A DNA stretch of 64,000 nucleotides from assembly GCA_047967505.1 (NCBI GenBank), contig CM106538.1; one strand, written 5' to 3'. This DNA is from Dipteris shenzhenensis. Lineage: Eukaryota. Under the pieces are notes generated by a model. That model had not been told where the DNA came from, ran no database searches, and saw only the letters and a list, made by a program, of their open reading frames with translations. Positions 1,972 through 48,970 of the stretch are shown one piece after another (the first letter of the stretch is position 1; each line of letters begins with the position of its first letter). The position numbers and the translations under genes were made by a program.

Positions 1972-2009
1972 GGAATGAGATTTGTCCACAGTGGTCTAGA
2001 ACTTGCGGA

Positions 2010-5366: not shown

Positions 5367-5419
5367 GAGTACTCAAGGAGAGGTATCAGTGATGTAGGCT
5401 GAAATGTAGGGAAGAGATG

Positions 5420-5850: not shown

Positions 5851-5884
5851 GGAGATTTGAAAATTGAAATTCAAATTTAAAAAA

Positions 5885-6041
5885 TTGGCCCCCTCCCATC
5901 ATTGATGGGGGGATAGGTGGGCTTAATTGTGGGCTTAACCTACCTAGGTTGGGTTGGTTACAAGCCCCTTGCTTTAGCCCATTAAGAATTCCTAATCCAT
6001 TCCTTATGAGGCCCTTTTGAGACCTCGATTCTCCCTAAATG
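5885..6041 (-). mobile_element. Putative DNA-transposon terminus, copy 1
   Basis: GAGGCCCTTTTGAGACCTCGATTCTCCCTAAATG ends at 6041 and is similar to 22626-22659 and, more weakly, 32411-32440; similarity stops abruptly after it. Confidence 0.5.
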
Positions 6042-6249
6042 TTAAATTAAACTAGATGAGGTCTCATGGTGATCGTTTGATGGTTAAGAAATGGTAGAAG
6101 GAACAACGTACTCCTCAGGGGTTCGGGGGTAGCGTCCCTGATCATGGGGGTCTAGGGGCAATGCCCCTAGTGGGGGTTCAGGGGCAGCACCTAATCAAGT
6201 TGACTCTCATGTACATATGGCAGTCTCTACAAAGTGTGACTAATATAGT

Positions 6250-8825: not shown

Positions 8826-9179
8826 TGTGAAGAGAGTGGGAGAGAAGGAAGGAGTCTCACTAGTAGCTTTATCACATACACAATGAGGGAATAAACACAA
8901 AGGTGGGGGCTGAAAAATAGTTTTCCTCTTCTTAGTTGTGAAAGCCAAAAGAACTCTAAGTACAAAAGAATAGGTGAACCCTATATGTGGGTCTCAAACC
9001 AAACCTAGCTAACTAAGGTGGCATACTAATTGAGCCACTAACTAGAGTACATAAAGATAGCTATCATCTAGCTATTATTCATGGGCAGTGTACCAACCGC
9101 ATTTGCAGCTAACAAATATGTGACATAAATGCACAACGGTTACCCTGGCATATCACAAGTGGAGCTCAATATATCAACA
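8826..9179 (-). repeat. LTR copy A (about 354 bp)
   Basis: TGTGAAGAGAG...TCAACA; highly similar to 13359-13712 and 16852-17209. Confidence 0.9.
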
Positions 9180-12100
9180 CTCCCCCTCGAGCTCAATCCC
9201 AGGTCTCTGAACTTGCGTAGCTTCTCTATACCCAATGCCTTCATGATTATGTCAGCAACTTGATCCTCTATGCTGACATAAACTAGATCAATAAAACCTA
9301 CTAGAACCTTCTTCTGCACATAGTGATAATGCACCTCAATGTGCTTTGTTCTAGCATGATAGACTGGGTTATTTGCTAAGTGTATACTGCTCATCTTGTC
9401 ACAATAAATGACAAGTGGCCCATCTGTAGACTGATGCATATCATAAAGTAGCTTATGCAACCAAGTTGCCTCACATACAACCATTGCTACACCCCTGTAC
9501 TTAGCCTTTGTGCTCGACAAGACAACTTTAGCTATTTCTTGCTGCTCCAAGTGACTGCAGCACTCCCAAAAGAGAACACATATCCACTAGTAGATTGTCT
9601 ATCAGAAATACTACCAGCCCAATCAGCATCAGTGTATCCTACATCCAAATGCGGTTTCCTTGAAGCCTGCATAAAATGACTTACCAAACCAATATCATAG
9701 CTCAAATCTAGCCTGGTAATAGTCATATAAATCAAACTTCCTACTATGCATCTGTACATAGTAGGGTCTTCCAGAAGCTCACCTGCATCTGTGCTCGGCT
9801 TCACATTCTGCTCTAAAGGAACTGAAATAGGCTTACAGCCTATCATCCCATATTTGGATAGAATGTCCAATCCATATTGCCTCTGCAAGAGCGATATCCC
9901 ACTTGTGGATCTAATCACATCAATGCCCAAGAAGTAACACAGCTCTCCCAAATCCTTCATCTCAAACTTCTGCCTCAATAGCACTTTCACATGAAGGATA
10001 TCTTCATCACTGTCACCTGTGATGATCAAATCATCAACATAAATGACAAGTAGCATAATACCTGTCTCTGTTTTTCTCACATAAGATGAAAAATCTGCCT
10101 TGGAAATCTGAAAGCCAATAGTGACACTTTATTGTCCTATCTTGTCAGACCATGCTCTGGGTGCTTGCTTCAAGCCATACAAGGCTTTCTTCAATCTGCA
10201 AACAAAACAGCATGAACATAATCTGGTGGCTGCTTCATATAGACCTCTTCCTGCAAATCACCATGCAAGAAAGCATTCTTTACATCCTTCTGATGTAAAG
10301 ACCATCCCTTTGATTTAGCCATAGCAATGACTACTCTTACGGTTGCCATCCTTGCAATTGGACTGAATGTTTCTCATAATCAATGCCATATGTCTATGCA
10401 TACCCCTTGATAACTAATCTTGCCTTGTATCTGTTCACAGAACCATCTGCATTGTGCTTTACCTTATAAACCCACTTGCAGCCAATTGCATTCTTGTCTT
10501 TAGGCAAAGGCACCAATTATCATGTAGCATTTCTTCCAAGGCATCCATTTCTTCATCCATGGCTTTCTCCCATTTTTCTTTTCCCATGGCTTGCTCAAAA
10601 GAAGTGGGTTCTGGTTCATGTATCACTTTGACCATATAGGCATAGTGAATGGCTATAAATCCATCATATTTCAGCCTATCCACAAAATACCTAGCTCTAG
10701 TAGACGTGTGCAAAATAGGCTCACTACTAGGTGCTCTCAAAACATCCCTTGTCTTCCTTACTCCAGGTGTAACAATGGAAAGAATACCCAATTCATCATC
10801 AACGCTATGCTCTGAGCCACTAGATTCACCATCCACATAAGAGTGACCTGCATTCACATCAACCATGGGCTGATCTACTTTCTCTTTTCCTTTTCGTAAT
10901 ACTTGCATACCACTATCTGCATTGCTTGGAGGAGATCCTCTTGATCTCAATCTACCTATCCATGGCGAAGTATGTGAACCACTTCTAGAAGACACTATAG
11001 GTCCACCAATATTTTGTGATTGCTGCTATGAATTCTGTGCAGCATTACCATTTTGTGCATCTACATCATCAATCACATTTACTGGTTTATACTAGCTGCT
11101 CATCTCATCAGAAACATCTCTGCTCACTATAAACTAAGGAAAACAAGGGTTATAGCATCTATACCCTTTCTGCTGCAAAGAATAACCAATAAAGATGCAC
11201 TTCTCAGCTTTTGGATCCAACTTGGATCTCAACTCATCTGGCACATGAACATAGGCAATGCAACCAAAAACTTTCAAATGAGAAATATCTGGTTTCCTAC
11301 CAGTATACCTCTCCTCTGGTGTCACGCCATGTATTGTTGCACTAGGAATCGTGTTCATTACATAGACTGTTGTGGCAACTACTTCAGCCCAATAATAATG
11401 TGACAGGTCTTTTTCATTGAGCATGGCATGAGATACCTCTCCAATATGCCTATTTTTCCTTTCTATAAGTCCATTTTGTTGTGGGGTATGACTGCATGAT
11501 TATTGCTGCTTTATGCCGTGCTCCTGCAGGAAACTTGCAAACTCATTTGAGAGGTACTCTGCCCCTCCATCTGACCTTAGGCATTTTATTTGTAGGCCTG
11601 TTTCTTTTTCAACCATAGCTTTAAAAGCTTTGAAATGCCCAACACTTCACTTTTCTTTTTCATAAAATACACCCAAACTTTTCTGCTATAGTCATTAATA
11701 AAAGTGACAAAATAATGACAGCCTCCAATAGATGTAGCTTTAGTATTCCACACATCAGAGTGAATCAATTCCAATGGCCTCTTACTCTCTTGAACATGTC
11801 TAGGAAATGGTTTCCTTGCCTATTTTCCAAATTGATAGGCTTCACATACCTTATGGATTTTTGCAGTTACCTTGAACTTAGGCAATCCTGTAACAATATT
11901 TTGGGCCTGCATTAATTTAAGTCGCTGTACATTAACATGACCAATGCATTTATGCCAGATATCAATATCGGCAACTACACCGGTCCCATGTGCAAACATT
12001 GCTACACTCAACTCAGGCATGTCCACATCCAACATAAACATCATGCCCTTCTTCTTCACTTTTGCTATCAAGCAACATTTATTTTTCATATTCTCAACAA

Positions 12101-12574
12101 AGCATCCATGAGGATTAAATCTGACCTGCAAGCCTTGCTCAACCATTTGACCAATAGAAACCATGTTCTTGGTGATATTCGGGACATGAAATACATCAGA
12201 CAGGTATTTCTTTTTTCCATCTTGCATAGATAAAGGAATTTTACCAATCTACACAATAGGATGTGTAGTATCATCACCAGTCTCCACAAATCCTGGTCTT
12301 TCCATTTTCTTTACATCTTGCATCCATTCTACATGACCTGTCATGTGGCTTGATGCACCTGAGTGAATATACCACACATCATTGCTTTGTTCTACACTTG
12401 TCATAGAATTTGTCATGTGCTACACCATAAACAGATGCTCATTTCTGTCATCACCCTATCTACTAGAGGATGCATAATTGCCTTGCTGCCATTTTCCAGT
12501 CATGATGTCATTTTGCTTTTTATAGCAGTCTCTAACCATATGACCCATTTTACCACCGTAGTAGCATTCAATAG
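8826..12574 (-). mobile_element. Ty1/Copia copy A: 3' LTR 8826-9179, PPT, then RH, RT, INT, PR and the gag zinc knuckle; 5'-truncated
   Basis: [41 protein letters not shown] and CYYGGKMGHMVRDC motifs; PPT AGGGGGAG at 9180-9187; many stops and frameshifts. Confidence 0.95.
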
Positions 12575-12661
12575 AATACTCAAACACATATATAAATGAA
12601 TGAAAAATCAGAATAGGGTGGTTCTACACCCACCAAAAACTTGCGTGGCTCTCTGTTTCTC
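12575..12661 (+). mobile_element. Internal piece of the LTR family seen at 633-820, in opposite orientation
   Basis: AATACTCAAACACATATATAAATGAATGAAAAA...GGGTGGTTCT...TGGCTCTCTGT is the reverse complement of about 677-759. Confidence 0.85.
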
Positions 12662-12689
12662 TAGAAGATTTCAGCTATCAACTGGACCA

Positions 12690-13325
12690 AGATTAAGATC
12701 CTTGGTACATTAGCAACGGTGCATCATCTCACATGACAAATCATCAAGAATGGTTCACAGAGTTGAAACCATTAGAAGATCAAAAGAATGTCATCTACAT
12801 AGCACATAATACATAGAATCTAGTTCAAGGGATAGACATTATCCCTATGAACAATTTCACTAGTACGAAAGGATTGATGAAAGATGTACTCTACGTTACA
12901 AAGCTCAGCAAAAACCTTTTTTCAATAGGTCAAATGACGGAACACAACTATTGAGTCATCTTCGACGGAGATGAATGCACTATCAGAGACAAATCTAGAA
13001 GATTTCAGCTAGTAGGAAAAGGTGTCAAGGAAGGATGCTTGTATAGAATACTAGCTACAGTACCAGATTTGCATGCCATGTTAGCTCAACTACAACAGAT
13101 GCCACTATTTGCAAAATGGCACAAGAGATATGGTCATGTCAATTTCAAGAGCTTGCTAGATCTCAGGAATTAGAATATGGCAATCGGGATTCCTAAGCTA
13201 CAGTTTCTTGGAAAAGTTTGCAAAGCATGCTGCTTTGGCAAACAAAAGCGAACCAACTTTGGTAGAAGCACCTCTTGAGCACGAGATATTCTTGATTTGA
13301 TACATGCAGATGTATGGGGTTATGC
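12690..13325 (+). mobile_element. Ty1/Copia fragment of a different family (protease, GAG-pre-integrase, start of integrase)
   Basis: WYISNGASSHMTNHQEWF, KWHKRYGHVNF, ACCFGKQ and LDLIHAD motifs on plus. Confidence 0.8.
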
Positions 13326-13358
13326 CTAGCATTAGGAAAAAAAGGGAGCTCATTTTGG

Positions 13359-16300
13359 GGTCGAAGAGAGTGGGAGAGAAGGAAGGAGTCTCACTTGCAG
13401 CTTTCTCACATACACAATCAGGGACTATACACAAAGGTGGAGGCTGAAAACAATTTTCCTCTTCTTAGTTGTGAAAGCCAAAAGAACTCTAAGTACAAAA
13501 GAATAGGTGAACCCTATATGTGGGTCTCAAACCAAACTTAGCTAACTAAGGTGGCATACTAACTGAGCCACTAACTAGAGTACATAAAGATAGTTGTCGT
13601 CCAGTTATTATTCATGGGCGGTGTACCAACCGCATCTGTAGCTAACAAGTCAGTGAGATAAATGCACAACGGTCACCCTCGCATATCACGAGTGGAGCTC
13701 GATATCTCAACACTCCCCCTCAAGCTCAATCCCAATTTCTACACACCAAGTAGGTCTGTGAACTTGCGCATCTTCTCTGCACCCTATGCCTTTGTGAATA
13801 TGTCAGCTACCTGATCCTCTGTGCTGACATAAACTAGATCAATAAAACCTACTAGAACCTTCTCCTGCACATAGTCATAATGCACCTCAATGTGCTTTGT
13901 TCTAGCATCATAGACTGGGTTATTTGCCAAGTGTATAGTGCTCATGTTGTCACAATAAATGACAACTGGCCCATCTGTAGACTGATGCATATCATAAAGT
14001 ATCTTATGCAACCAAGCTAACTCACATGCAGCCAATGCTGCACCCTTGTACTTAGCCTCTATGCTCGACAAGGCAACTGTAGGCTGTTTCTTGCTGCTCA
14101 AAGTGACTGCATCACTCCCAAAAGAGAACATTAATCCACTTGTAGATCGTCTATTAGAAATACTACCAGCCCAATCAACATCAGTGTATCCATGCAACTG
14201 TATCTGAACCCTAGTCTCATAAAATACTCCATACTGCAATGTGGACTTCACATACCTCAGTATGCGTCTAGCCGCATCCAAATGCGATTTCCTTGGAGCC
14301 TACATAAACTGACTTACCAATCCAACACATAGCTCAAATCTGGCCTGGTAATAGTCATATAAATCAAACTTTCTACTATGCGTCTGTACATAGTAGGGTA
14401 TTCCAGAAGCTTACCTGCATCTACACTCAACTTCAATTCTGCTCCAAAGGAACTGAAATACGCTTACAGCCTGTCATCCCATATTTGGATAGCATGTCCA
14501 ATCCATATTGCCTCTGCAAGAGTGGTATCCCACTTGTGGATCTAATCACCTCAATGCCCAAGAAGTAACACAGCTCTCCCAAATCCTTCATCTCAAACTT
14601 CTGCTTCAATAGCATTTTCACATGAAGGATATCTTCATCACTATCACTTGTGATGATCAAATCATCAACATAAATGACAAGCAGCATAATGCCTTTCTCT
14701 GTTTTTCTTACATAAAGTGAGAAATATGCCTTGGAAATTTGAAAGCCAATAGTGACAAGATACTATCCTATCTTGTCAGACCATGCTCTTGGTGCTTGAT
14801 TCAAGTCATACAAGGCTTTCTTCAACCTACAAACAAACTCAGGATGAACATCATGAACATAACATGGTGGCTGCTCCATATAGACCTCTTCCTGCAAATC
14901 ACCATGTAAGAAAGCATTCTTTACATCCATCTGATGTAAAGACCATCCCTTTGATGCAGCCATAGCAATGACTGCTCTTACGGTTGCCATCCTTGCAATT
15001 GGACTGAATGTTTCTTCATAATCAATGCCATATGTCTGTGCATACCCCTTGACAACTAATCTTGCCTTGTAGCTGTTCATAGAACCATTTGCATTGTGCT
15101 TCACCTTATAAACCCACTTGTAGCTAATTGCATTCTTGTCTTTAGGCAAAGGCACCAATTCCCATGTAGCATTTGCTTCCAAGGCATCCATTTCTTCATC
15201 GATGGCTTTCTACCATTTTTCTTTTCCCATGGCTTGCTCAAAAGAAGTGGGTTCTGGTTCATTATCACTTTGACCATATAGGCATAGTGAAGCATTGTAA
15301 ATCCATCATATTTCAGCATATCCACAGGATACCTAGCTCTGGTAGACGTGTGCAAAATAGGCTCACTACTAGGTGCTCTCAAAACAGCCCTTGTCTTCCT
15401 TACTCTAGGTGTAACAATAGAAGGAATACCCAACTCATCATCAAGGCTATGTTCTGAGTGACTGGATTCACCATGCACATCAGAGTGACCTGCATTCACA
15501 TCAACCATGGGCTGATCTACTTTCTCTTTTGCTTTTCGTGATACTTACATACCACTATCTGCATTGCTCTGAGGAGATCCTCTTGATCTCAATTTGCCTG
15601 TCCATGGCGAAGTATGTGAACCACTACTAGAGGACACTATAGGTCCACTAATATTTTGTGATTGCTGTTGTGAATTCTATGCAGCATTACCATTTTGTGC
15701 ATCTACATCATCAATCACATTTACTAGTTTATACCAGCTGCTCATCTAATAAAAAACAACATCTCTGCTCACTGTGAACTTACGAGTAGAAGGGTTATAG
15801 CATCTATACCCTTTCTCCTGCAAAGAATAACCAATAAAAATGCACTTCTCAGCTTTTGGATCCAACTTGCATCTGGCACATGAACATAGGCAATGCAACC
15901 AAAAACTTTCAAATGAGAAATATCTGGTTTCCTACCAGTATACCTCTCCTCTGGCATCATGACATGTATTGTTGTAGTGGGAGTCCTGTTCATTATGTAT
16001 AGTATTGTAGCAATTGCTTCAACCCAATAATAATCTGGCAGGTCTTTTTCATTGAGCATGGCACGAGATAGCTCTCCAATATGTTTGTTTTTCCTTTCTG
16101 CAAGTCCATTTTGCTATGGGGTATGACTACATGAATATTGCTGCTTTATGCCATGCTCCTGTAGGAAACTTGCAAACTCATCTGAGAGGTACTCTCCCCC
16201 TCCATCTGACCTTAGGCATTTTATTTGCAGGCCTGTTTCTTTTTCAACCATAGCTTTAAAAGCTTTGAAATGCCCGAATACTTCTTTTTTCTTTTTCATA

Positions 16301-16587
16301 AAATACGCCCAAACTTTTTCTATTGTAGTCATCAATAAAAGTGACAAAATAATGACAGCCTCCAATAGATGCAGCTTTAATAGTCCACACATCAGAGTGG
16401 ATTAATTCCAATGGCCTCTTACTCTCTTGAACATGTCTAGGAAATGGTTTGCTTGCATGTTTTCCCAATTGACAGGCTTCACATACCTTATGTATTTTTG
16501 CAACCTTGAACTTAGGCAATCCTGCAATAATATTTTGGGCCTGCATTAATTTAAGTCATTGTACATTAACATGACCAATGCATTTAC
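13359..16587 (-). mobile_element. Ty1/Copia copy B: 3' LTR 13359-13712, PPT, RH, RT, INT; 5'-truncated
   Basis: [35 protein letters not shown] and HSDVW motifs; same family as copy A. Confidence 0.95.
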
Positions 16588-16589
16588 AC

Positions 16590-16851
16590 AAACACTCATG
16601 TGACTCCCCTAGATGCACACATGCACCATAGAGCAAGCCCTTGATCATACTTATCCCAACAATGTATTATGAAAGTTTCAAGATGGCTATGAAAGAGTTT
16701 ATGCCATTAATGGTGGTAAAAGCATGGGGGGAGTCGCACATTATGCATTATATTATGGTACTCTTGGAACCATTGTAATATTTAGCACTTGCTTTATAAA
16801 TAGTTTTTGCTGCTCTTGAAATGATTCTCATCATGTCTGTAGCATATTCTC
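16590..16851 (+). pseudogene. Fragment of a second RAG1/Transib-like transposase
   Basis: YYESFKMAMKEFMPLMVVKAWGESHIMHYIM|gt..ag|HLLY matches YYDRFKIALGDFISLMVEAWGESHITHYI|gt..ag|HILY at 3522-3675 (minus), with the same intron position. Confidence 0.75.
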
Positions 16852-18325
16852 TGTGAAGAGAGTGGGAGAGAAGTAAGGAGTCTCACTTGCAGCTTTCCCA
16901 CATACACAATGGGGGAATACACACAAAGGTGGAGGCTAAAAACAATTTTCCTGTTCTTAGTTGTAAAAGCCAAAAGAACTCTCTCTCAGTACAAAAGGAA
17001 TAGGTGAACCCTATATGTGGGTCTCAAACCAAACCCAGCTAACCTAGGTGGCATACTAATTGAGCCACTAACTAGAGTACATAAAGATAGCTATCATCCA
17101 GCTATTATTCATGGGTGGTGTACCAATCGCATCTGCAGCTAACAAGTCGGTGACATAAATGCGCAACGTTCACCCTGGCATATCATGAGTGGAGCTCGAT
17201 ATCTCAACACTCCCCCTCGAGCTCAATTCCAATTCTTGCATACCAAGCAGGTCTCTGAAGTTGCGTAGCTTCTCTATGCCCAATGCCTTCATGAATGTGT
17301 CAGCTACATGATCCTTTGTGCTAACATAAACTAGATCAATAAAACCTACTAGAACTTCTCCCGCACATAGTGATAATGCACCTTAATGTGCTTTGTTCTA
17401 GCATGCTAGACTGGGTTATTTTCCAAGTGTATACTGCTCATGTTGTCACAATAAATGACAACTGGCCCATTTGTAGACTGATGCATATCATAAAGTAGCT
17501 TACACAACCAAGCTACCTCACATGTAGCCATTGTTGCACCCTTGTACTCAGCCTCTGTGCTCGACAAGGCAACTGTAGGCTATTTCTTGCTGCTCCAAGT
17601 GACTGCAACACTCCCAAAAGAGAACACATATCCACTGGTAGATCATCTATCAGAAATACTACCAGCCCCAGTGTATCCATGCAGCTGTATCTGAACCCCA
17701 GTCTCATAAAATAGTCCATACTGCAATGTGGACTTCACATACCTCAGTATGTGTCTAGCCACATCCAAATGCAGTTTCCTTGGAACCAGCATAAACTGAC
17801 TTACCAACCCAACATCATAGCTCAAATTTGACCTAGTAATAGTCATATAAATCAAACTTCCTACTATACATCTATTCATAGTAGGGTCTTCCAGAAGCTC
17901 ACCTGCATCTGCGCTCAACTTCACATTCTGCTCCAAAGGAATTGAAATATGCTTACAGCTTGTCATCCCATATTTGGATAGCATGTCCAATCCATACTGC
18001 CTCTATAAGAGCCATATCCCACTTGTGGATCTAATCACCTCAATGCCCAAGAAGTAGCACAGCTCTCCCAAATCCTTCATCTCAAACTTCTGCTTCAATA
18101 CCATTTTCACATGAAGGATATCTTCATCACTATCACCTGTGATGATCAAATCATCAACATAAATGACAAGCAGCATAATGCCTTTCTCTGTTTTTCTCAC
18201 ATAAAGTGAGAAATTGGCCTTGGAAATCTAAAAGCTAATAGAGACAAGATACTGTCCTATCTTGTCAGACCATGCTCTAGGTGCTTGCTTCAAGCCATAC
18301 TAGGCTGTCTTCAACCTGTAAAGAA
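16852..18325 (-). mobile_element. Ty1/Copia copy C: 3' LTR 16852-17209, PPT, RH and part of RT; 5'-truncated
   Basis: Same LTR and PPT as copies A and B; YVDDL; breaks off within RT at about 18325. Confidence 0.95.
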
Positions 18326-18329
18326 ACTC

Positions 18330-19103
18330 ACCTTCCCCTCAGCCTGCCCCTCAACCTTCCCCTCAGCCTTCCCCTCAGCCTTCCCGTCGGCCTTCCCCTC
18401 CCCATGAGAGCACTCCCCTGATCGAGCAAAATATATTTGAGAATCTCCCTTCCCTTCAGCCTCCCCCTCCCCATGAGAGGACTCCCCTGCACAAGCAAAA
18501 TGTATTTGATAAACTCCCTAATATAGAGAGGCTTCCTGAGGGCCAACAAACTACTAGGAAGATCACAATCTTCCTCTCTTAGTGAAGAGGGTAAAGCAGA
18601 TGCCGAGGAATCCCCATCCCAAAGAAGGACAAAGCTCAAGACATCCGTGAGAGGGGGATTCAGAGGAGGATCAACATAAAGAAGAGAAGCGTAAGAAATT
18701 CAAGGCAGACAGGAGGCCATCGAACCATGTTCGGGTACCTGTAAAGCCTCCACCAAGAATCAGGAAGCCATACAAAACAAAGGCAGGAGCACGGGTCCTA
18801 AGGTAGATCAAACAGATGTAGAAGACCACTGACAACCTAATCTCCCGTGCTCCCTTCCAATGTGTGGTATGGGAGATAGCACAAGGATACAAGGACGATG
18901 TGTGATTCAGCACAGGATCTATGGGGGCACTCCAAGAGGCTACGGAGCAAGTGACCATTGCTTTGTTTGAGGACACCAACTTGTGTGCCATCTATGCAAA
19001 GTGTGTCACGATCATGGACAAGGGACATGGCTTTGCCGAAGCGGCTATGGGGTTACCCAAGGTTGAAGCCTGAGATTCTCTTACAGCCCACCCTTATGAC
19101 TTA
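18330..19103 (+). pseudogene. Divergent histone H3-fold pseudogene with a long Pro-rich/charged N-terminal extension
   Basis: From 18762: [84 protein letters not shown](+1)[10 protein letters not shown], colinear with H3 [50 protein letters not shown]...[30 protein letters not shown]. Not listed in the ORF track because of the stops. Confidence 0.9.
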
Positions 19104-19605
19104 GACCACCCTCTGCCCTTGAAGACACTAGATTCTTGTATATGAGGCCCAGGGCCAATCTTTTTAATAAAATATATCCACATTCTCTACACTATCGCAT
19201 TGTTGTGTATTCTCCATGTTTATGACTGAAATTACTATTCATTTCAATGTAAGTTTGGAATTCTATCAAATCTTGAAGGAATTTCACCATCGCATAGATA
19301 TCCAAGATGTTGCTAGGAGCCTAGAAAGCCTAAAACCCGCCACGGCGTGAATTTGGACATTCAAATTTGTGCCATGGCAGGTTTTAGGCTTTCTAGGCTC
19401 TTGGTGACATCCCAAACACTTTTCCCTTCTGCGTCATGATGAAATTTCTCCAGGATTTGATAGAAATGAACTTTCGATACCCAGAATTGGTGAAAATGAT
19501 ACTAAAATATTATGAATTCATGATGAGCAATGATAACTTAAAACATATAATAAAGACATGTCGTTAAGTATCAATTGAAATATATGTTTATATATACAAA
19601 AGGCC

Positions 19606-21079
19606 TCACAGGCTATCTTTCTTCTTGGCTAGTTTGAGTACATTGAGAATAGGGGTCTTTGAATCCCCTAGTGGATTCCTAGATATAAACCTAGCCACAA
19701 CAGCACTAACATCCTCATCTCCTACTACCAAAGACATAGCTATTGCCGTCAATGCCCTACCATAAATGTTCGATCCAAAGGCATTGATAGCAGCCAGGTA
19801 GTGTACCAAAATGACTTTGTCGGCATTCCGAGTAATGTTGGAGTATCTGATAGCTCGAGTTTGATAGTACGCGACAATGCCTTGCACTTCAATAGCTTTG
19901 AAGGACCTCGAGGAGAAAATTTGTTGTGGAAGACCACGATGTGCTCTGCGACTTTGCCAAGGTAATGGGCCAAAGAATGATCTCGCCCAAATGCACTACG
20001 AACATTACCCCATCGAGATGAGAATTCATCAAGCTCAAACGCATCGTGTAACAATTCAACAAGCATTAGAATACCGACAACAAATTATACTGAAAGAACA
20101 TCAAAATAAAAAATATTGTTCGAACCTACCACTATAGCATCGTTGGCTTCTATCCCTTCCTCATTTGCAATGTTGATGGAACCAGGTGCTGATGCTCCAT
20201 TTGGGAGGTGGATGCTTTCTCCTGACCTGTGTTGGAGGTAGAAGCTTCTACATGAGAGGGATATGCATCATATATGGACATGTCTGCATCCCTCATTGAA
20301 ACCAGCGTCATCAAGAGAAACTCTTCCATTGTCTGGTCTTTAGAACCAAAAACCTCGGGATCTTTGACACTTGTGTCAACATCGAACCTAGATAGGACTC
20401 CAAGTGTCTCATCCTCTCATAGTCCAAAAAGAACCTCTATGTCATGGAGGAATACGTACTCTTCTCCATCGATGATGAGGGGGGAAGGGGACCATAATTT
20501 TGATTCTAGGTCAGTGGTCTCCGATGTAGATTCTTGCTTTACTAGGGGCTCTTGAAGTAGGCTCAATGCTTGAGCTGCTTCTAGCTCCTCTCTTGCATCA
20601 TCAAGACTCTCTTCCATGTATATGTCCGAGTCTAGTCTAGGGATGAGCAGATCAACAGTTCTACTAGAGGGGGGGCTAGACGATGAGGCTTCTTCCTCTA
20701 AATTTCCTTCTTGGAGAAGGAAGATGAATGTCATCTCCCATGAAAGGAATTTTGTGCCTATATTTCCCGTGATCCCCACGTCTAGGATGTCTTTAACTTT
20801 GACCATCCTAAACCCTTCCTCTGTAAGGTTGTCACAAAAGTGGGCCAAGTGCTTTACAAACTTGGGTTCCTCTAGGAACAGATACTTTATGTAATCTATG
20901 GGAAACCATCTCTTTGAAGAGTGGTCAAGTGTATAAACAAAATTTGAGAAATTATCTTGCATGTAGAGGATGAGATCTAAGAAATAATCCTTGGCTTGCA
21001 TATATGTGCCTAAGACATCTAAAGTCCTATCAAACACTAGAAATAGCCCTTCCTCACACAATCTGCAAATGCAATTCAT
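19606..21079 (-). pseudogene. Uncharacterised ORF remnants (220 aa at 20417-21079; frameshifted 19606-20100), probable transposon cargo
   Basis: Long protein-like open frames downstream of a TATATAT/AACCCTAA-type upstream segment at about 21230; no domain recognised. Confidence 0.4.
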
Positions 21080-21338
21080 GAGATGAAGTAATGGAACATA
21101 GTTCTAATTGAATCTAGGGCAAATAGCAGCAGCAGCTGATGGAGGGAGTAACTTTTGAGGGGGGGAGTTTCTATGGCTCTCTAAACGTGAAAGTGAGAAT
21201 GTGATGTAAAAAGGGCTCTAACCCCTTAATATATATCAAAACCCTAAAAATTGAAATTAATCATAAAATCCCCAAATTTTTTGAAAAACATTTACCATGA
21301 ACTGAAAGGAGATAACATTAAAAGAAATAACTTTTAAT

Positions 21339-21950
21339 TTAATTGTCCATCATCTTTTGAAGCAATAACCAGGATTTGACAAACAAAAAATTAAATGCTA
21401 CACTAATCTTCAAAGTGCAATCCATGTCTTTAAGTTGTGGTGGTGCAATGGTTTGTAGACGGCCATAGCTTGATGATATCGTTGGAGTGATATATGTTGC
21501 ATTATACCAATACACATTCTTCATTTGCAAGGAGGCCAACTTCTCCCCGACATGCATTTGCTTACATAAATCCTCATGAATCGCAGTGAGCTTGCCTATG
21601 AATGATTCAACTAGTTCCCATTCCTTGAAGTCCGAAGGGAAAACATCTGCCACCATGAATAAGAGCTCTTAGAAACCAAACACAAAATTTCCAAATGGAC
21701 TCATTACACTTATAGGTGAAAAAGGTACATAGATGGAAAGGCTCACAGTGTGATGGTATCCTAGATTGATTGAATGATGGAGGAAACTGCATATCTTTTC
21801 CCGTGTAAACATGTTGCACTTTTGCAAGCCATCCTTTCTTCCCAAACTTGAACTTCAAGATGTGCCCCTTCCACTCATGCAAGATCTCACCTCTCTTGCT
21901 CTTGGGAAGCTTATGTGGACCTTTGGCCAATCCTTTCATCACTATCCAAT
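21339..21950 (-). pseudogene. Spliced gene remnant with BAH-like motifs
   Basis: EWKGHILKFKF...AKVQHVYTGKDM, then a probable GT-AG intron (about 21647-21746), then DVFPSDFKEWELVESFIGKLTAIHE...VYWYNATY; resembles BAH ELF.S...D.I...SI.GKC.V. Confidence 0.35.
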
Positions 21951-22140
21951 CATTTATGTTATACACAGAGCAAATCCAACAGAGGCACAAAAGAGGGAGA
22001 AGGAGAGGGATAGAGCAGCAGCAATAGAGGCACAGGAGAGGGAGAAGGAGAGGGACAGAGCATCTCCAATAGAGGCACAAAAGAGGGAGATGGAGAAGGA
22101 TAGAGTAGCACCAATAGAGGCACAGGAGAGGGAGAGGGTG

Positions 22141-22142
<2 letters not shown>

Positions 22143-22226
<84 letters not shown>
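22143..22226. repeat. (GA)n microsatellite, preceded by three degenerate ~45-bp repeats (21980-22140)
   Basis: About 40 GA units; AGAGGCACA(A/G)(A/G)AGAGGGAGA recurs. Confidence 0.95.
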
Positions 22227-22369
22227 GGAGCTGTAGCAAGCAGGCCAGAGCAGGAGGGAGCAGAGAAAGAGGGGGAACAGGGAAAATGCATGGGATTTGG
22301 CAGGCTAGACTAGAACACTGGGGGGCAAAATCCCTATAAAGAGGGAGGGGAGAAGGAAAATTCGCCAGA

Positions 22370-22659
22370 AGGGCCCTACCATCCCATTGAAGGTAGTTTT
22401 GGGCTCATGTGGGGGAGGTGCACCTCATAGGAGGGTCAAACATGGGTTAAGAGGGTAGGGATGGTTTGGGTGGTCCCTAGTGTAAGGGGAGCAATCAATA
22501 GGGGCTATCTACTACAGGCCTTCCCATCCTCCACCTCAACATACCATTGCCCCACACCTTCTAGCACTTTCATTGGTATACCTCAAATCACTCTCTAATC
22601 CCTTGAAATTATGAAACACTAATTGGAGGCTCTTTTGAGACCCCATTTCTCCCCTAATG
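22370..22659 (-). mobile_element. Putative DNA-transposon terminus, copy 2
   Basis: GAGGCTCTTTTGAGACCCCATTTCTCCCCTAATG ends at 22659; also shares GGCCC(T/C)..C..CATTGA with about 5888-5905. Confidence 0.5.
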
Positions 22660-23109
22660 AATATCTGACATCCAAACATGCAACCTCATAGAGAATGTGG
22701 GTAGTGCATTGGCCATTGTGAAAAAAAAAAAACTCCAAAGATTAGTTGTCTCTAAAGAACAGTGCATTATCTATTATGATGATTTATAATCAAGGCATTC
22801 ACTTATCAAAGGTCTCACAAGTCCTTAAAGTTCCAAGTTGTAGCTTGTATCATGCAATATTTAGAATGCATGCCTAGGCTGATGATGTTAATGGGTCTTG
22901 TTCTAAGTTGAAAGTAACACCACACTAGCCCATTCATCAATGAAACAAAGGAGATTGTACCCTTATTTTGGGAGGCTAAGATAGGTGTTTCCGCAATAAT
23001 GATGTTTTCCAAAAAAATAGCCGACAAAAGAATCACATGAAGCACCCAGTATGCCTACACAATGAGCCTTATGTACAAACTTGTAAAGTGCATTATACAT
23101 GAAGCACAT

Positions 23110-24060
23110 TATGTTGTGGTTACCATTGTCATATGCTAGTTAGCACCTGATGTGTTGGTTACTATTGTCATATGCTAGTTAGCACTTGAAATGCCAATGG
23201 AGACTATCTTATGCTAGTTAATACTTGCAAAGCTTGATAGTGCCTAGTTGTCTAGTTACCATTGACATATGCTACATGGATGTTTTTATTGAAGCTCTAC
23301 TTATATATTAATGTAAAATCCAAGAAAAAGTTTATCAATCTAGTTTTTTTAGTTTCATAATATTGATGGAGCATAGTACAATTTTATATATTTTCTTTTG
23401 AATTTTGAAGTGAAAGATGTAAATCTTGGCAAAACTTTACTTTTTTCCATAGAAAAGTTTCAAATCCAAACGAACATTTTAAACATTTATATTTATTAGG
23501 GCATACAAACTTTTGATACCATTTTAAAAAGTTCCACTTTTTAACAAAACTACATGAAAAAATCAGCTATGTTCTAGTATGCTAAGATTTACAAGTGTCA
23601 TATGTTGGTTACCACTATCATATGGTGGTTACTACTCTCACTTCTACCTATTTACCATTGTCATATGGTAGTTAAAAATGCTTGTTAGCACTGTAATAAT
23701 TTCTAGGCACCTACATTGCTAGTTACAATTTACCACTATTATATGCTTGAGAGAATAGGCAATGTTGGTTAACATGTCATATGCTAGTCATCAGTAGTAG
23801 TGGTCCTACTAGCTCCCACCATCACACTCAAGCTAGCATGTGCATTCTAGTTAGCACTTGCAATGCTATGCTAGTCAAAACTTGCAATGCTATGCTAGTC
23901 AAAACTTGCAATGCTATGCTAGTTGGCACCTACAATGCTGGTTAGCAATTGGAGTAATGTTGGTTAATATCTACAATGTTATGTTAGTTAGGACCTGCAG
24001 TATTGGTTACCACTAGAATGCTGTGTTGGCTAGCACCTGTAATGCTAGTTAGTACTTTCA
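23110..24060. repeat. Degenerate satellite built on ATGCTAGTTAGCAC / GTTACCA motifs
   Basis: Recurring motif, including a 24-bp unit CTTGCAATGCTATGCTAGTCAAAA at about 2.8 copies (23857-23923). Confidence 0.75.
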
Positions 24061-25599: not shown

Positions 25600-28008
25600 T
25601 TAAAGGAGACTTGCACTACTATGTGTTGTGTTTAAAATTGTTTGGGAAGATTAGGTGTAAGCAAGCTGAGGACAGTGAGGGCACAATACTTTGGTTTGAG
25701 TTCTAAGAAACAAGATTATTACTTGAGTGCAACAATCACCCCCCTAAAGAATGAGCAGGTGGAGTATCAGTTAGAGTATGCAAATTTGTAGACCAACCTT
25801 TAAAAACATTAATATCTCAGGAAATGCAAGGCTAACACGCATACAAAAGAGAACAATGTGTTTTAGGAATCCACGTCTAATTGGGCCTATTGGACATATG
25901 GTCGTATCATGGATGGAAATATATTTTGATTTGAATTCAAAAGTGAGACCCACAACAAGAAAACTGCACTTGATGGATAATTACACAAGATTTGAGGTTT
26001 TCACACTCTACAAGGAGGAGATGTCAGAGAGCAATGAACGGTTTGATAGCTATAGTCATTTTAATAGATTGTGGAAGAACTTCTTCAATAATGTGAAGAT
26101 GATCCCCCCAAAAAGTGCGATGGGGGTATGTAATGTATGTGCAAACCTCAAAAGTCAATGGCAAAGGGCTAAAACAACCTCAAGTGAATGAGGTACCGGG
26201 GTATTTTACATGTACATTTTGATTCTCTAAAAGATTTTGGGTGTGTGAATTATTTGTGTGTTTTGACATGCATATCAAATCAATAGTGCTCTTAAGCACC
26301 ATCGAGAGAAACATGCCAAAGAATGATCAAAACTGGCAAAGCATAGAAGAAGGTGCTTCAAGAATCCCTCTAAGTATCTTGGTCTCTTTATGGATAGTAT
26401 AGATAAAAGGAAGACCAATCTGTCTCACTTAAAGAGAATTTCAAAAGATGTGAAGGAAGAGACAGTTGTGCGAATGCATCTCATGGGGGGTTCATGGGAT
26501 GTCACTTATATCACAAAAAGTTCCAAGCTAGGGTATTTTTAATTATCTAGATTTGCATAGTAATGCAAATATATTAATCATAATAAATCATTGCATTCTC
26601 ACATTGTGGGAAGGCCCCCTTCCAAGAACACTATATATCCATCTCGACAATACAGGTAACATCAAGAGAAAACAAAAACTAGACATTCTTCCATAATGTG
26701 TATGTTTGTGGATAAGCGAATTGTTGATAAGATCAAAGTTGGATTCCTATTGGTTGGTCAAACTCACGATCACATATATTAAATACCTAGTACATTCTCC
26801 AAGAAACGTAGAAGAAATGATGCATTCACTTTAGTGGAGATGATGGATAGATTGTGAAAGAATCTTATATTTCACAACCTGAAGTTTATCACTTGAAAAA
26901 GACTTACAATTTCATGAGATTTATTCAAGGTGGACTAGGTGATGAATTTTGTATCAAGAGGTTGAATGAGAACTTTCAACATTAATTTCTCATAAAGAAA
27001 AAAGCATATCAAAGAACATATCTATATGGTAAGAAATATGCCTCTTCTTTAGATTGGGTATCCATGGGTGGCTTACAATTCCTATCTTCTTTTGGACTAG
27101 CTAGTCCGTGAAATTAATGCTTCAATGCTAGAACCTCTAGTGACTGAGAGTGAGGTAAAATAGGCACAAGATCAAGGAAGGAATTTGACTATGAAAGGTG
27201 CATGTCAGAGAATAGAATTTTGATAGAGAAGGCAAAAACATACTCTAGAAGTGTAGACAATGGAATGTGGCAGAATAACTTTTTTGAATACCAAGCCCTC
27301 ATCCTTGAATGGTTCAAGAGTAACACTACTACTTTGTGCAATGATTTTGTATGGCCAACATATCATCCTCATTCAGAAAAGTTATACCACCTAAAAGTCT
27401 ATCACTTGAGGTTGAAGCTTTAATCAACATATATGCACGAGAGATGTATCTTGGTGCACGACTATCTTGCCAAAAGATGAAAAGAGCTCACTAAAATGTG
27501 GTAGGTTTTGTACAAGATTTAAAGTGTGGATCGATGATTGCAACTCTTGCTTAAGAGGACCCTCTTGGACATCCATTCTAGATTGCAAAAGTGGTAGAAA
27601 TTCAAAAGTCTATGCAAGGCTAGGTAACTTCCATTGTTGTGCAATGGTTTAGGACTACACATGCTAATCCATTGAAAGGAAAATATGCTCCTCAAATAGT
27701 TGCATGTCCAAAACAGAAAAGGAAAAGAAGGGACACCAAAAACCAACCATGATTGGATGTTCTTACTTAGAGAAGTAGACATACTTGTTTATGATCTTCA
27801 ACTTACAAATGATGGATGCCTAAGGAAGAAGAAAATAGATGTTCTCTTTGAGAAGGTTCCACCCTATGCAACACATCTTGTTGGATCCTCCTCCTTTAGA
27901 CTCTCATGGTTGCAAATGGAAGGGGCACTAGGCCTTCACAGGGACAAAGAGAATGTTCTTGTTAATAGTGTGGAGGAGGATGGATCATCCACTTCTGGAT
28001 CATCATGA
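25600..28008 (+). pseudogene. DUF7869/Sola1-like DDE transposase pseudogene
   Basis: SYSHFNRLW...CNVC (CxxC), LFMDSIDKRKT, LYIHLDNT..RENKN, IKVGFLLVGQTHDHI and a C-terminal PF*IAKVV...VQWF domain; many stops. Superfamily assignment is from motif recall. Confidence 0.7.
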
Positions 28009-28189: not shown

Positions 28190-30946
28190 CATAACCTGCT
28201 GCTGAGTCTCCGAGCGCCCTGATCCTATGCAAGTATGTAACTGACTGAAATGCTGCATCTAGCGCTAGGGGTGTAGCTCCGAACTCTGCGAGCATAATCT
28301 GATGCGGTACCGTGGCTTCGCTCTGATCAATCTGGAGAACATGATGATCTGTAACCTCTCTACTCATCTCCAATCTGCAACACTGAGATCTCCTACCCAA
28401 AAGGGGCTAGCATACATGGCTGTAGGTCTCACCAGTGTATCGAAAAGTAAGGACTTCGTGTCGGGATGCTGAAAATGTGACTGTGCACATTGCCTCTCGA
28501 GAAGAGCCAAGGCGGCATACCCTCTACTGATCCTATCTCGTGCTGCATGCGTCATGGTGAAGACTGGACCTCTAAATGTGGCACCCAAATATGTATACTC
28601 CCTGACTAGCTCCACCTCCTACCCATCAAATGTGAAAGAGAACTCGCCTCTCCTATAAACCTGGTATGACGTGTTGAAGACCATGACTTTGGTCTTCCCA
28701 AGGTTTACAGACAACCCTCTGTCCTGACAAAAGTTGTGGAGTGCATGGAGATGTGCCTGTAAACCCGGTTGGGAGGAAGAAATAAGAACCACGTCATCTG
28801 CATAGAGGAGAATCGGTATCATGGATCCTACCAGTAAAGAACCTGTACCACCCATCGTCTATATGTACATCTCTAACTCATCGATATAGAGACCAAAGAG
28901 TGTCGGAGACAAAGGACACCCCTGCTTCACCCCTATCATACTGCGTACTTCCCCCGATAGCCCCGCCCGTGTCCTGACTCTACCTGTGACTCTCTCATAC
29001 AAGGCCATGATCGCCCATTGAATCTCCCCACTGAATCCCAAGTCACGAAGTCGCTGGAAGAGTCTGAAACGCGGCACAGTGTCAAATGCCTTTCTGAAGT
29101 CCACGAAGCAACAATAGAGCCGTTGCTTACGTGACTTGGCCTCCTCAATCAAAGCCCTGAGTGTGAAGATATGATCTAGAGTTGAGTGCTCTGCACGAAA
29201 TCCTGCCTGCCCTCTAGCTCTCATACCTGTCGCCTCGGCATGGTCATTTATATGTCCTTCTAGAATGGTCGCATAAATCTTGGCCATGACATGGCCAATC
29301 ATAATGGTCCTATAGTTCGATGCCTCCAAAGGATCCCCCGACTTGTGTATGGGTACTATAGTATTTTCTAGCCAACTAGGTGGAAGACCTGTACAAATGG
29401 ACTCGTTAAAAAGACGGGAGAGGACTATAGCTAAGGCATCAATCCCATGGATTACATACTCCGCTTGCAATCCATCATGGTCCTTAGCTCTCCTAGTCTT
29501 CAAACGATGAACTGCTGCTCGGACACTACTGGATGAGAATAAGGCAGAGGAGGTGGGTCTAGGCATATGGGATAAGTCGATCTGTGGCTGGTCTGGAATA
29601 TCATATAAAGTGGAAGTATAGGCAAGCCAAACCTGCGGGTCTGTAAGAGGAGTTTGAGATTTCAAGTGAAGGAATTTCTTCTAGAATTCCTTGGAATCAC
29701 AGCTAAAAAGTAAACTTCTCAGCTCCTCCTCATTCCGGGCTAGAAATTGGCGCTTTTTGCGTCACACCAAACGCTTGTTACAACTCTTCTTGGTCTCAAT
29801 GAGGAGGGGAGACTTCTCCTGTGTCTCAAGGCAAAGCTTCCTGTGGAGTTCTTTACACTCCTCATCATACCATCCATTACAAGGCACAAGACTGACTGGT
29901 GGAGGACTGGATGTGTGGCAAGTGACGAGGAAGGACTTGTGGGCTGCCGAGATGATGGAGGTATGTACAAGGTCCCACCGATCCTGTGTGGAGGATAGGG
30001 CATCGAGAAGGTGCGGATGGAGAAGACTACTCGGGTGCTGGCTATAAATATCATTGAACTGGTGGTCAAAATGAACCTCATAGTATGGCTGACGCTCATG
30101 ATGTCTAGAAGGGGGGGCATGAGGAATCTGGGTAAGAATAAAGTGCAGACATGCATGATCCGCTCAAGGCATAAGAGGGTCGACTGTGAGGTTATGTACA
30201 AAAGGGATTAAAGTCGGGGGACCCAAGACGTAATCAATGACGCTCGTACCACCACCTGCGAAGGGAAAACATGTGGCTGTGGATGAATGCGGCCACTGTC
30301 GAAGTCCATTATAAATGACCATGCCATGCGATGAGAGAAGCTCCAATAGGTGATGTCCCTGATCTGTCACCTCTACCCCTCTATCTGAAGATAAGCATGG
30401 AAAACTCTCATCTGGGGCAGCTAGAACTTTAAAGACTGGATCCTCAGCAAAGTCCAAAATCTATGCCTGTCTGTCTGATGTCCTCGTGTTGAAGTCTCCT
30501 AAAAGGATGACCTCTCCGCAGCGTGAGTACTCCAATACATCGGCTGACAAATCCTCAAAAGGTGACTGTCCTGGTCCATCTGAGGCATAACGAGTCTGTC
30601 TCAGGGGAAAGTAGCATACTGCAATAAAAAAGTCTCTCAGGCGGGGTCTTCTGATCCGTACCCAAAGATATCTGGCCTGATGGTCTCTCCTCACGACTGT
30701 GAATATCGATCTGAGATGCTCTCTATAAAGAACTGCCACAACGCCAGATCCTCTGACTCCTCCTGATCGTCTAGTCTGCTGTTGAAAGACAAACTCCCAG
30801 GCATACTCTGTCACCTGTGGCAAGCCTCTCTCTGGGCTCTCATGGGTCTCTGTAAAGAAGACGATGTCCTGATCAAAAAAGGCCTCTCGTAAGTTGCCAG
30901 GCTGAGCTGTGAGGGAACCATTACAGTTCCAAACTGTGAAACTCAA
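28190..30946 (-). pseudogene. LINE ORF2 (endonuclease and reverse transcriptase)
   Basis: Consecutive ORF pieces separated by single TAG/TGA stops (30458-60, 28856-58, 28616-18) and a few frameshifts. Confidence 0.9.
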
Positions 30947-31054
30947 GCTATCTGGTAGGCTACATGTCCCATAGGCCTCGTGTCGTCAACTGTGGACTCC
31001 AGCCGGTCTAGATCACATAGCTCCTATCAAAAGTCTACCCTCTCTGATCACGGC

Positions 31055-31830
31055 TCACTTGCCCTCACGACGGGCAACATCCCTCTGTGCAATGAGACGT
31101 CTATGCTCCTCCCACTGAAGAGCTGTAAGGTCCTCATCCATGTGAATCTGTGGATGGTCCCTCAATCTGGATCTCCTCCGTAATACTGCGAGATGGGCCT
31201 CAGCATCTCTGAATCTGATGATAAGTGGCTGGTGCCGTGCTGGATCCCGGCCCACTCGATATGCAGCTACTATGCCATGATCCTGAACTCCGAGTGTCCC
31301 AGATACGAAATCTGTCGCCTGATCCATGGCTGATCTCGTATCTGATCGCTCAACTCCACGGATGCGGATGTTGAGGGCCTTCTGAGCTCGCCGCTGACTC
31401 TCGGCAATAGTCTCAGAGACTATGGTCTGCTGGGCATGTGGGGCTCTATGCACAACGTCCACCCACTCTGAGGTCTTCTGTACCTCTGTCTGCAGTGTGG
31501 CCAGCCTCTCCTCAACTGCTGCACTAGCTGGAGGAGCTACATGCAGCTGCTAGAGGCGATCATCGCATGCCACAACATGCTCCTGAATGCATGCCTCCAG
31601 CTGCACTATGCGCTCAGCATGTGTCCGTAATTGGATGTCTCGATCAATATCTCTAGTATGAAGTTGGCGAATATGGGAGTCCTGATCAGATCTATGACTC
31701 TCAACTGTCGATAGCTGAGCAATCAGTGTGTGTATCTATGCTGTGAGAGACTGAATCGCAGCGCCCTGAAGTCTGCAAGTCTCCATGCACTGCATAACTA
31801 AATCTCTCAAGCGCAGATTATCTGCCAGGA
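31055..31830 (-). pseudogene. LINE ORF1 (coiled coil plus RRM-like domain)
   Basis: ORF 31055-31462 plus an upstream Q/E/L-rich frame broken by TAG stops. Confidence 0.75.
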
Positions 31831-33222: not shown

Positions 33223-34373
33223 TCACAAGTCTTGGAGCTGGAAGTAGCCCACAAGCTCATTCCAGCATTCACAAATCGATTGGTGCTTGCAGAGTGCATC
33301 GCTTCCTTCCATCATCAGCCACAAATCATGATTAATGTGATGGTTGACTACTTCGTCAGCAGATTGTTCGTGCGTGCCTGTGGTTATCAGATTGCTGCAT
33401 CCAATATTGATCTGTTCCTTGGAGTCGTGTGCGCAGAAATTAGCACTGATATTGCTGCCGCAGAACGTTAATTCGCTAGACGGTTCTGCAATCTGCACCT
33501 GCTTAGTTGATGAATCGGTGCTCGTTGCTACCGTTATTTTATTGGTTATGCGATCGATCCACATTGCCCATTCCGATGCTATTGAGACTTGATTCACGGT
33601 CCTTGCGGAATTAATTGCTAGGGCCTCTTTCGCATTGATCTGGGTGTCCGGAGAGATAATCCACTCTCCAGAAGTACCCTCAGCATCAAAGAACGATGTG
33701 AACACAGTTCGCAGCACGGGAATCTTCGCATGACAAACAGGGTTCATCCCTCTGCTGCCATACTCTTCTTTCTCAATCGCGCATGGGGTTTCACTCTTAG
33801 TTGATTCTGTTTTATCGATGCTAATTGTCGTCCTCTGTTTCTGTTCTTGTCTCCTCATGAAAATGTGCCACATGTTCTTCACATCGTTGTCTGTTCTCCC
33901 CACAAGATGCGCAGCTATCTTGGTCCATCTGTTGTGAGAAAGAACATTTGAGGCAGCGATGTAGCAGTATTCATTGAGTGTCATCAGTTAAAAGTGGAAT
34001 CTCATCAATCATAGCAAGTACACTCTTCCATACCAATACCTGTTTCCATAGAGTTTTTGCAGCTCATATACATGCATCGCTTCCTCCATCGAAAATTTCC
34101 CACGCTTTATGCCTGGTCTCAAGTGGTTCATCCAACGTCTCCTACAGCTCTTTCCGCATCTTCCCAGACCTGCTCAGCATCGCAACTGTAAGCCATTTCC
34201 AAAGGAACCTATTCAATCGGCTATGACAGAGATATATATATATATCTAGCAAGGATCCTCTCACCCGCTTTACGAGCTATGTCGCTCCAAGTGAGGTGAG
34301 TTCGCGGCTCGGCCAGGATTCTCAGCAGCTTTTCATCCTCTTCGGGTGACCAAAGAGCTCTCATGCTTACCAT
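33223..34373 (-). CDS. R2R3-MYB transcription factor, 3 exons (34373-34265, 34169-34040, 33928-33223), 314 aa, apparently intact
   Basis: [17 protein letters not shown]...[38 protein letters not shown]...[29 protein letters not shown] introns at the canonical R2R3-MYB positions with the typical 130-bp exon 2; 945-nt open frame. Confidence 0.93.
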
Positions 34374-48950: not shown

Positions 48951-48970
48951 AGGTTTTTAAAAATCATCTT

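Follow-up and report, generated by a model that had tools for sequence, protein, structure and literature searches.

A histone H3-derived pseudogene within a degenerate multi-copy repeat of Dipteris shenzhenensis, probably a non-autonomous DNA transposon

In a 64-kb stretch of Dipteris shenzhenensis DNA (contig CM106538.1; the whole stretch is here referred to as the window) we analyzed a repeat that carries a pseudogene derived from histone H3. The block 18331-22659, taken together with a short fragment at 16587-16854, probably represents one old, degenerate and non-autonomous copy of a multi-copy repeat, most likely a DNA transposon of the Pack type whose cargo is dead. This copy is here named copy B, and a second, partial copy between 1852 and 6041 is named copy A. 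The original prediction had seen in this region a multi-gene transposon which encodes its own histone mimic and a reader for it. The multi-copy repeat with its H3-derived sequence and the second copy in the window stood up to our analysis, but the transposase, the BAH reader and a working H3 did not.

The H3-like sequence of copy B is intronless and located on the plus strand at 18600-19073, with its ATG at 18600 and the final TGA at 19071. It matched the Pfam family Histone (PF00125) with 63.1 bits (E 4e-17) over the profile positions 20-113 of 122. This is above the curated cut-off of 26.4 bits for the histone fold. When 18300-22700 was scanned in six frames, Histone was the sole Pfam family to exceed its cut-off; the only other row was a match to Atrophin-1 that stayed below it. 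Furthermore, the C-terminal 55 residues matched solved H3 chains in the PDB (E 1.9e-11). The identity to ordinary H3 was 45% over 96 amino acids (aa).

The H3-like frame is interrupted by four in-frame stops (TGA 18648, TAG 18804, TAG 18819 and TGA 18903) and does not have the uninterrupted frame of a functional H3 gene. The stretch 18600-19073 is a pseudogene and not a gene. Thus, of the convergent plus-strand H3-fold gene that had been proposed, the fold and the convergence with the open reading frames (ORFs) of the minus strand were confirmed, whereas the intact gene was not. As judged by reading the alignment, C-to-T decay would account for many of the changes relative to ordinary H3, in which Arg is replaced by Cys or Trp and His by Tyr.

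The putative N-terminal tail of the H3-like sequence is divergent and reads MPRNPHPKEGQSSRHP*EGDSEEDQHKEEKRKKFKADRRPSNH.... It appears to differ from the canonical H3 tail with its motif ARTKQTARKS. The portion that begins with EGDSEE and extends to SNH is also present in copy A, and the odd tail is common to both copies in the window and to other genomic copies. A search for homologous proteins with the H3-like sequence scored 14 candidates, four of them ordinary H3s, and was uninformative on relatives with the odd tail.

Evidence for further copies came from the contigs of three DNA runs (X1, X3 and X4) of one organism, which were aligned on 18331-21960 in 30 bins. In total, 105 (X1), 123 (X3) and 134 (X4) contigs were found, and all 30 bins were covered in each run; according to a warning of the tool the contig depth does not equal the copy number, and it was used qualitatively only. 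Less than 95% alike to the window were 88, 105 and 113 of these contigs, respectively, with most values between 80 and 95%. The aligned pieces cover the H3 tail (18585-18851 and 18728-19023), the neighbouring pseudogene of a protein family here named family X, and the right-hand block. Together with the second copy in the window, these contigs identify an interspersed multi-copy repeat. The block 18331-21960 belongs to a multi-copy repeat family carrying H3-derived sequence.

The contigs are also informative with regard to decay. In run X1, transitions made up 270 of the 398 differences between window and contigs (68%). An A/T in the window faced a G/C in the contigs in 155 cases and the reverse was found in 115 cases, so that C-to-T decay of the window copy fits. 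Position 18648 is a C in all six covering contigs (two per DNA run), which gives CGA (Arg) and no stop. A peak of depth at 18936-19056 was made up of contigs with loose ends that resemble ordinary H3 genes and match only approximately 18966-19017. A further run, X2, which stems from organism B and is RNA by guess only, covered 20 of the 30 bins. These were all located from 19541 rightward and none over the H3-like sequence, and the run was not used as evidence.

Copy A carries a second H3-like remnant on the minus strand at 1852-2161. This remnant is more decayed and truncated: what is left are the tail and the part from alphaN to alpha1, in which a short stretch is duplicated, and the remnant ends after alpha1 and carries stops. 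The identity to the H3-like sequence of copy B was 50-65% in tblastn and tblastx comparisons, and the odd tail is the same. On the DNA level 18650-18892 matched 2159-1924 in inverted orientation (blastn, 63%, E 1.4e-15), and 18847-18892 additionally matched 1897-1852.

The two H3-like copies have the same unusual tail and are separated by about 16 kb, with opposite orientations. They could also be explained without any mobile element, namely by a host H3-variant pseudogene that was copied with its neighbours in a local inverted segmental duplication. We regard this as highly improbable. The more than 100 contigs per DNA run with 80-95% identity, which are present in all bins of 18331-21960 and also over the H3 tail, far exceed what two local copies would give.

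The best-conserved neighbour of the H3-like sequence in copy B is the family X pseudogene on the minus strand at 20150-21103. It consists of an ORF at 20417-21103 which continues in frame to 20150 past a single TGA at 20417-20419. This stop aligns with an Arg in the relatives (GL*EDETLGVLS compared with GLREDEALSVLA). Family X comprises 21 representative clusters at E<=1e-3, and its full-length forms measure 350-407 aa. None of the eight relatives scanned showed a Pfam family above cut-off, no source gives a name, and the best Atlas score of 0.79 was uninformative. An AlphaFold (AF2) model based on 15 sequences had a mean predicted local distance difference test score (pLDDT) of 73 with a confident core at approximately residues 40-135. 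A Foldseek search with this fold gave nothing convincing (best E 0.56). The VIA structural search reached a best Z of 6.5, with Dachshund at Z 5.7 and Ski-like at Z 5.0, and all these values are below the noise level of the tool (7-8). The proteins of family X are conserved but unnamed, have neither a Pfam domain nor a clear fold, and may travel with the repeat.

Within this pseudogene a stretch of about 40-60 nt at 20705-20767 stood out in the runs X1 and X4, with a depth of 264-651 in the bins 20630-20871 as compared with about 20 nearby. To its left and right the contigs diverge from the window, and the stretch is therefore part of some far more abundant sequence. A metagenome scan with the protein P0001 gave 95 pattern matches, none of which was confirmed.

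A probable further trace of an X-like gene is the fragment at 16587-16854 (plus strand), to the left of a truncated Copia element. Here, 16665-16753 recurs in copy A at 3675-3590 in inverted orientation (blastn, 76% over 89 nt, E 1e-14). The ORF at 16632-16778 has its counterpart in a piece at 3590-3740 on the minus strand of copy A, which resembles the N-terminus of family X. In the database protein P0017, residues 8-29 match 3732-3667 (minus strand) at 73% and residues 30-93 match the family X gene. Because P0017 joins a look-alike of the fragment to the N-terminus of X, we read the fragment 16587-16854 as the N-terminal piece of an X-like gene.

Both copies have a similar end. In copy B a subterminal purine-rich tract (85% purine) spans 21965-22300 on the plus strand, with 45-bp tandem repeats at 21965-22143 and (GA)35 at 22143-22212. 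It is followed by a terminal motif of 34 bp at 22626-22659 (plus strand). The end of copy A at 5400-6041 (plus strand) is composed of a purine-rich tract at 5400-5860 (89% purine) and a terminal motif at 6008-6041 that is 82% identical to the motif of copy B. A GA-rich tract inward of 22659 and a related terminus at 6041 with the same kind of tract had been predicted, and both were recovered here.

The two terminal motifs are located on the same strand (E 0.002 in a comparison of 4.4 kb with 6.1 kb). Inward of the motif a weak further similarity was found, with a local score of 15 as compared with 10.1 ± 1.7 in shuffled sequences, of which 6 of 300 reached this score. Outward of the motif there was no similarity, the score being reached by 95 of 300 shuffles. 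These comparisons support a putative boundary of the repeat at or near 22659 and 6041. A metagenome scan with the terminal motif gave no match.

The internal modules of the two copies are inverted relative to each other and the terminal motif is direct. It follows that one copy would show the left end and the other copy the right end of the element, as inverted repeats. Judged from 34 nt and two partial copies, this arrangement suggests what a transposon with terminal inverted repeats (TIRs) looks like.

The ends may be read as hAT-like, as Mutator-like element (MULE)-like if shifted by a few bases, or as the 3' end of a Helitron. Members of the hAT superfamily have short TIRs and a target-site duplication of 8 bp. 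The end TAGGGGAGAAA / TAGGGAGAAT resembles TAGGGATGAAA, the end of the hAT element Ac. The motif TAGGGRNGAAW is present twice in the window, with 0.61 occurrences expected. Domains of hAT transposases were not found in the six-frame scans of 18300-22700 and 2001-6200; a non-autonomous member would have none.

In Helitron families only the last 30 nt or so of the 3' end are common, and the captured fragments are varied and found in either orientation. The 3' end consists of CTRR after a hairpin, insertion takes place between A and T, and Rep/helicase is encoded by autonomous copies. A Helitron-type element, with the two termini as the ends of two different plus-strand elements, would agree with an end-to-end similarity confined to about 34 nt, with gene fragments on both strands and with the end of copy B, where CTAA is followed by T. 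However, copy A ends with CTAA followed by A, and the small hairpins upstream of the two ends are weak, with values of -4.2 and -2.6 kcal/mol (z of -1.35 and of -0.17). Additionally, neither Rep nor helicase domains were present in the two six-frame scans. We therefore consider a Helitron unlikely.

Somewhat less doubtful, though still an improbable solution, is a part of a retrotransposon with long terminal repeats (LTRs). Copy B would then represent either a long LTR or a non-coding stretch from the interior of the element, with gene fragments picked up in it, and the purine-rich tract would be a polypurine-like tract beside the LTR. The position of this tract near the boundary and the dominance of LTR elements and long interspersed nuclear elements (LINEs) in the window are in favour of such an origin. 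On the other hand, the orientation of the terminal motif relative to the modules is opposite in the two copies, which fits inverted and not direct ends. The boundary is without TG...CA, and neither gag/pol domains nor a primer-binding site were found beside 22659 or 6041.

The remaining ORFs were searched for the chromatin and transposase functions that had been assigned to them. The 'BAH-like' block of copy B is composed of two overlapping ORFs in different frames on the minus strand (21339-21668 and 21607-21960) and has no detectable family. BAH (PF01426) was not matched by either ORF at E<=1 or in the six frames at E<=0.1, and a comparison of both ORFs with the PDB gave no BAH chain at E<=10. 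The Atlas search of this block returned unnamed clusters only (best score 0.85) and was uninformative. A single-sequence AF2 model had a mean pLDDT of 41.2 and was too poor for a fold search. With no support from Pfam, PDB or Atlas, we do not maintain the designation as a BAH-like gene.

The same is true for the two RAG1/Transib-like sequences of the original prediction, a fragment at 16590-16855 and a transposase inside the terminus at 6041. For the ORF 16632-16778 only chance-level PDB rows were obtained (EAF3, E 1.1) and no RAG1. The six-frame Pfam scan of 2001-6200 yielded no family at all. Immediately inward of the terminus at 6041 there are three ORFs; none of them had a Pfam match, and the two compared with the PDB (5049-5372 and 4801-5118) had no match there. 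A transposase of any kind was absent from both six-frame Pfam scans. Furthermore, on the inward strand the sequence at the terminus is CATTAGGGG (the end is also given as CATTAGGGGAG), which differs from the CACAATG-type heptamer of Transib. Transib elements are expected to have heptamer-like TIRs and a target-site duplication of 5 bp.

These results bear on the most far-reaching explanation, in which a large DNA transposon is autonomous by virtue of a RAG1/Transib-like transposase and also encodes a functional histone mimic together with a BAH reader, both serving anti-silencing or targeting. The H3-derived sequence inside a multi-copy repeat and the common terminal motif after purine-rich tracts would be in line with it, and at 18648, at least, the stop disappears in the consensus of the other copies. 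Nevertheless, it is extremely improbable. RAG1, Transib, BAH or transposase domains were found neither in the six-frame scans nor in single ORFs at E<=1, and the ORFs 5049-5372, 4801-5118, 16632-16778, 21339-21668 and 21607-21960 are without a PDB relative at E<=10 beyond chance-level rows. The H3 copy has its four stops, the second copy is truncated, and the terminus does not read as the Transib heptamer.

We would rather interpret copy B as a Pack-type element. In this case the repeat would have captured genes, namely an intronless H3-derived sequence and, on the other strand, a copy of family X. The captured cargo would subsequently have decayed, with four premature stops in H3 and one in family X, and the remainder is ORF-like sequence without detectable family. 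Copy B ends in the purine-rich subterminal tract and the short conserved terminal motif, and its movement would have depended on a transposase encoded elsewhere. We infer that all modules are members of one element, that this element is a DNA transposon and that its cargo was acquired by capture. Since all that is left of the H3 copy and of the best-conserved ORF beside it are pseudogenes, nothing in this place can currently serve as histone mimic or reader.

Several observations weigh against the Pack-type interpretation. The two copies in the window have no more in common than the H3-like piece and a single small fragment, and the other ORFs of copy B did not recur beside the 6041 terminus in the window-internal comparison. 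No single copy shows both ends, and consequently neither a pair of inverted repeats nor a target-site duplication (TSD) was seen. The terminal match comprises only 34 nt at 82%, the purine-rich tract near the end can also be read as a retrotransposon feature, and no transposase was found by which a superfamily could be assigned. Moreover, the contigs of other copies break off at 21416 and replace 21519-21790, so that the right-hand block may be a mosaic of different repeats. Finally, among the 32 contig pieces listed, beside which there are 405 more, none spans both the H3-like sequence (to 19073) and family X (from 20150), which leaves the linkage of these modules in other copies putative.

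A related but distinctly unlikely scenario concerns master or young copies of the Pack-type repeat. These could be DNA transposons with inverted ends which carry an intact H3 variant with a private tail together with family X and mark or shield their own chromatin. The likeness of family X to Dachshund/Ski-type DNA-binding domains on which this scenario draws is weak and non-significant and refers to the confident core only. If it were true, both copies in the window would be the burnt-out remains of a transposon which supplies a nucleosome component of its own.

Copy B contains some further features. Upstream of the H3-like sequence two tandem units of 69 bp, 86% alike, are located at 18379-18516 (plus strand), and contigs of other copies skip 69-88 nt around them. 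A palindrome at 19255-19470 has core arms at 19306-19355 and 19362-19411 (50 nt, 82% complementary), its outer limits being set by eye. In this region the contigs join opposite strands at 19224/19228-19467 and at 19375-19514. Possibly, the palindrome is a small foldback insert or an insert resembling a miniature inverted-repeat transposable element (MITE). Two overlapping anonymous ORFs of 129 and 111 aa at 19606-20084 (minus strand) have no recognisable family. They gave nothing above the Pfam cut-off, and their best PDB row, topoisomerase V with E 0.05, is not credible.

The window as a whole is plant-like and rich in transposable elements (TEs), with LTR and LINE elements dominating. Three adjacent Ty1/copia pieces are found on the minus strand at 8829-18330, as direct repeats at 8829-13362, 13363-16586 and 16855-18330. 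The third one is truncated and interrupts or abuts copy B. It carries RVT_2 at 18003-18227 (E 2.5e-15), the truncation falling inside the reverse transcriptase, and shares 86-95% DNA identity with the two neighbouring Copia copies, the identity blocks of the repeat search being at 88-95%. Both findings assign 16855-18330 to Ty1/copia and bear out the truncated Copia that had been proposed between the H3 side and the 16590 fragment. The adjoining 18228-18330 was assigned to Copia by a match of 87-89%. The three pieces are arranged head to tail with start-to-start distances of approximately 4.6 and 3.5 kb, and in pieces 2 and 3 the 5' truncation falls at different points. Such a tandem arrangement is unusual and not a case of simple nesting.

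Between the left edge of the window and copy A the sequence TGGTATCAGAGC at 621-632 (minus strand) follows an LTR-like stretch, which indicates a retroelement in this interval. In LTR retrotransposons, TGGTATCAGAGC is the classic site at which the initiator-tRNA-Met primer binds. A LINE-type element is located at 28859-31549 (minus strand), with RVT_1 (E 2.7e-17) and Exo_endo_phos (E 1.7e-12) in the part 28859-30985 and an additional upstream ORF. Three consecutive long, cysteine-rich ORFs (321, 102 and 240 aa) at 57597-59836 on the minus strand contain the motifs VVDFAENY and HGKGEHDGAG and are accompanied by a G-rich, proline-coding stretch at 60067-60572. They look like a large element-encoded protein. 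Neither a Pfam family nor a PDB relative was found for them, and the motif DFSENY/DFAENY/DFSENF had no match in the literature. A 138-aa ORF at 25775-26191 (plus strand) with a C..C motif at its end (GVCNVCANLK) had no Pfam match, and tblastx gave no relation to the ORFs at 57.6-59.8 kb.

A run of long GC-rich ORFs at 51240-53210 (plus strand) includes a RING-H2 finger at 52325-52618 (zf-RING_2, E 1.1e-6) and could represent either a genuine gene or a further protein of an element. An ORF of 254 aa at 33223-33987 (minus strand) has a partial Myb DNA-binding repeat with E 2.9e-5, a value at the cut-off. The stretch 48001-49000 is very AT-rich with a GC content of 15.5%, as compared with 32-53% in the rest of the window. 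A short repeat is shared in inverted orientation by 23359-23571 and 40389-40602 (tblastx), and the second site ends with (TC)11.

With regard to annotation, caution is advisable, since H3-like and ORF-like stretches in such repeat-rich plant regions are dead cargo. What remains of interest is the unusual H3 tail present in several copies and the conserved, unnamed family X. If intact young copies exist, the use of an own histone by a plant transposon becomes testable.

The idea of a transposon-encoded protein acting on host chromatin is shared with VANC, the anti-silencing proteins of the VANDAL Mutator elements. VANC is the product of an intact and expressed element gene, whereas every candidate in the present repeat is broken or unrecognisable. 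Our literature search for a transposon-encoded histone gave no match. Two groups of precedents bear on the capture of H3 by mobile DNA. In fungi, hAT elements carrying transduplicated H3 are found in the Dothideomycetes Pseudocercospora fijiensis and Pyrenophora tritici-repentis (PMC6710886, PMC3538342). In P. fijiensis a hAT element captured histone H3 and amplified it, the inactivated copies numbering in the hundreds; the fungal elements possess a hAT transposase domain, TIRs of 20 bp and TSDs of 8 bp, and lost their activity through repeat-induced point mutation (RIP) (PMC6710886). The present repeat differs from them in that no transposase, paired TIR or TSD was detected, in its plant-like nature and in the divergent H3 tail. 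Common to both are an H3 coding sequence in a DNA repeat, its amplification, the inactivation by mutations of the C-to-T type and a size of several kb.

In gymnosperms, the capture of histone H3 by a transposon is mentioned in a single sentence of a further article, which describes the capture of gene fragments as widespread and ancient (PMC13477047). The phenomenon in general, which the original prediction did not know to be described in plants, is thus not new. The present repeat resembles the gymnosperm case in being a non-autonomous repeat with pieces of host genes on both strands, pseudogenised copies and a TE-rich setting (PMC13477047). The block 18331-22659 is most likely an unexceptional example of how mobile DNA captures genes, and it is of a known kind.

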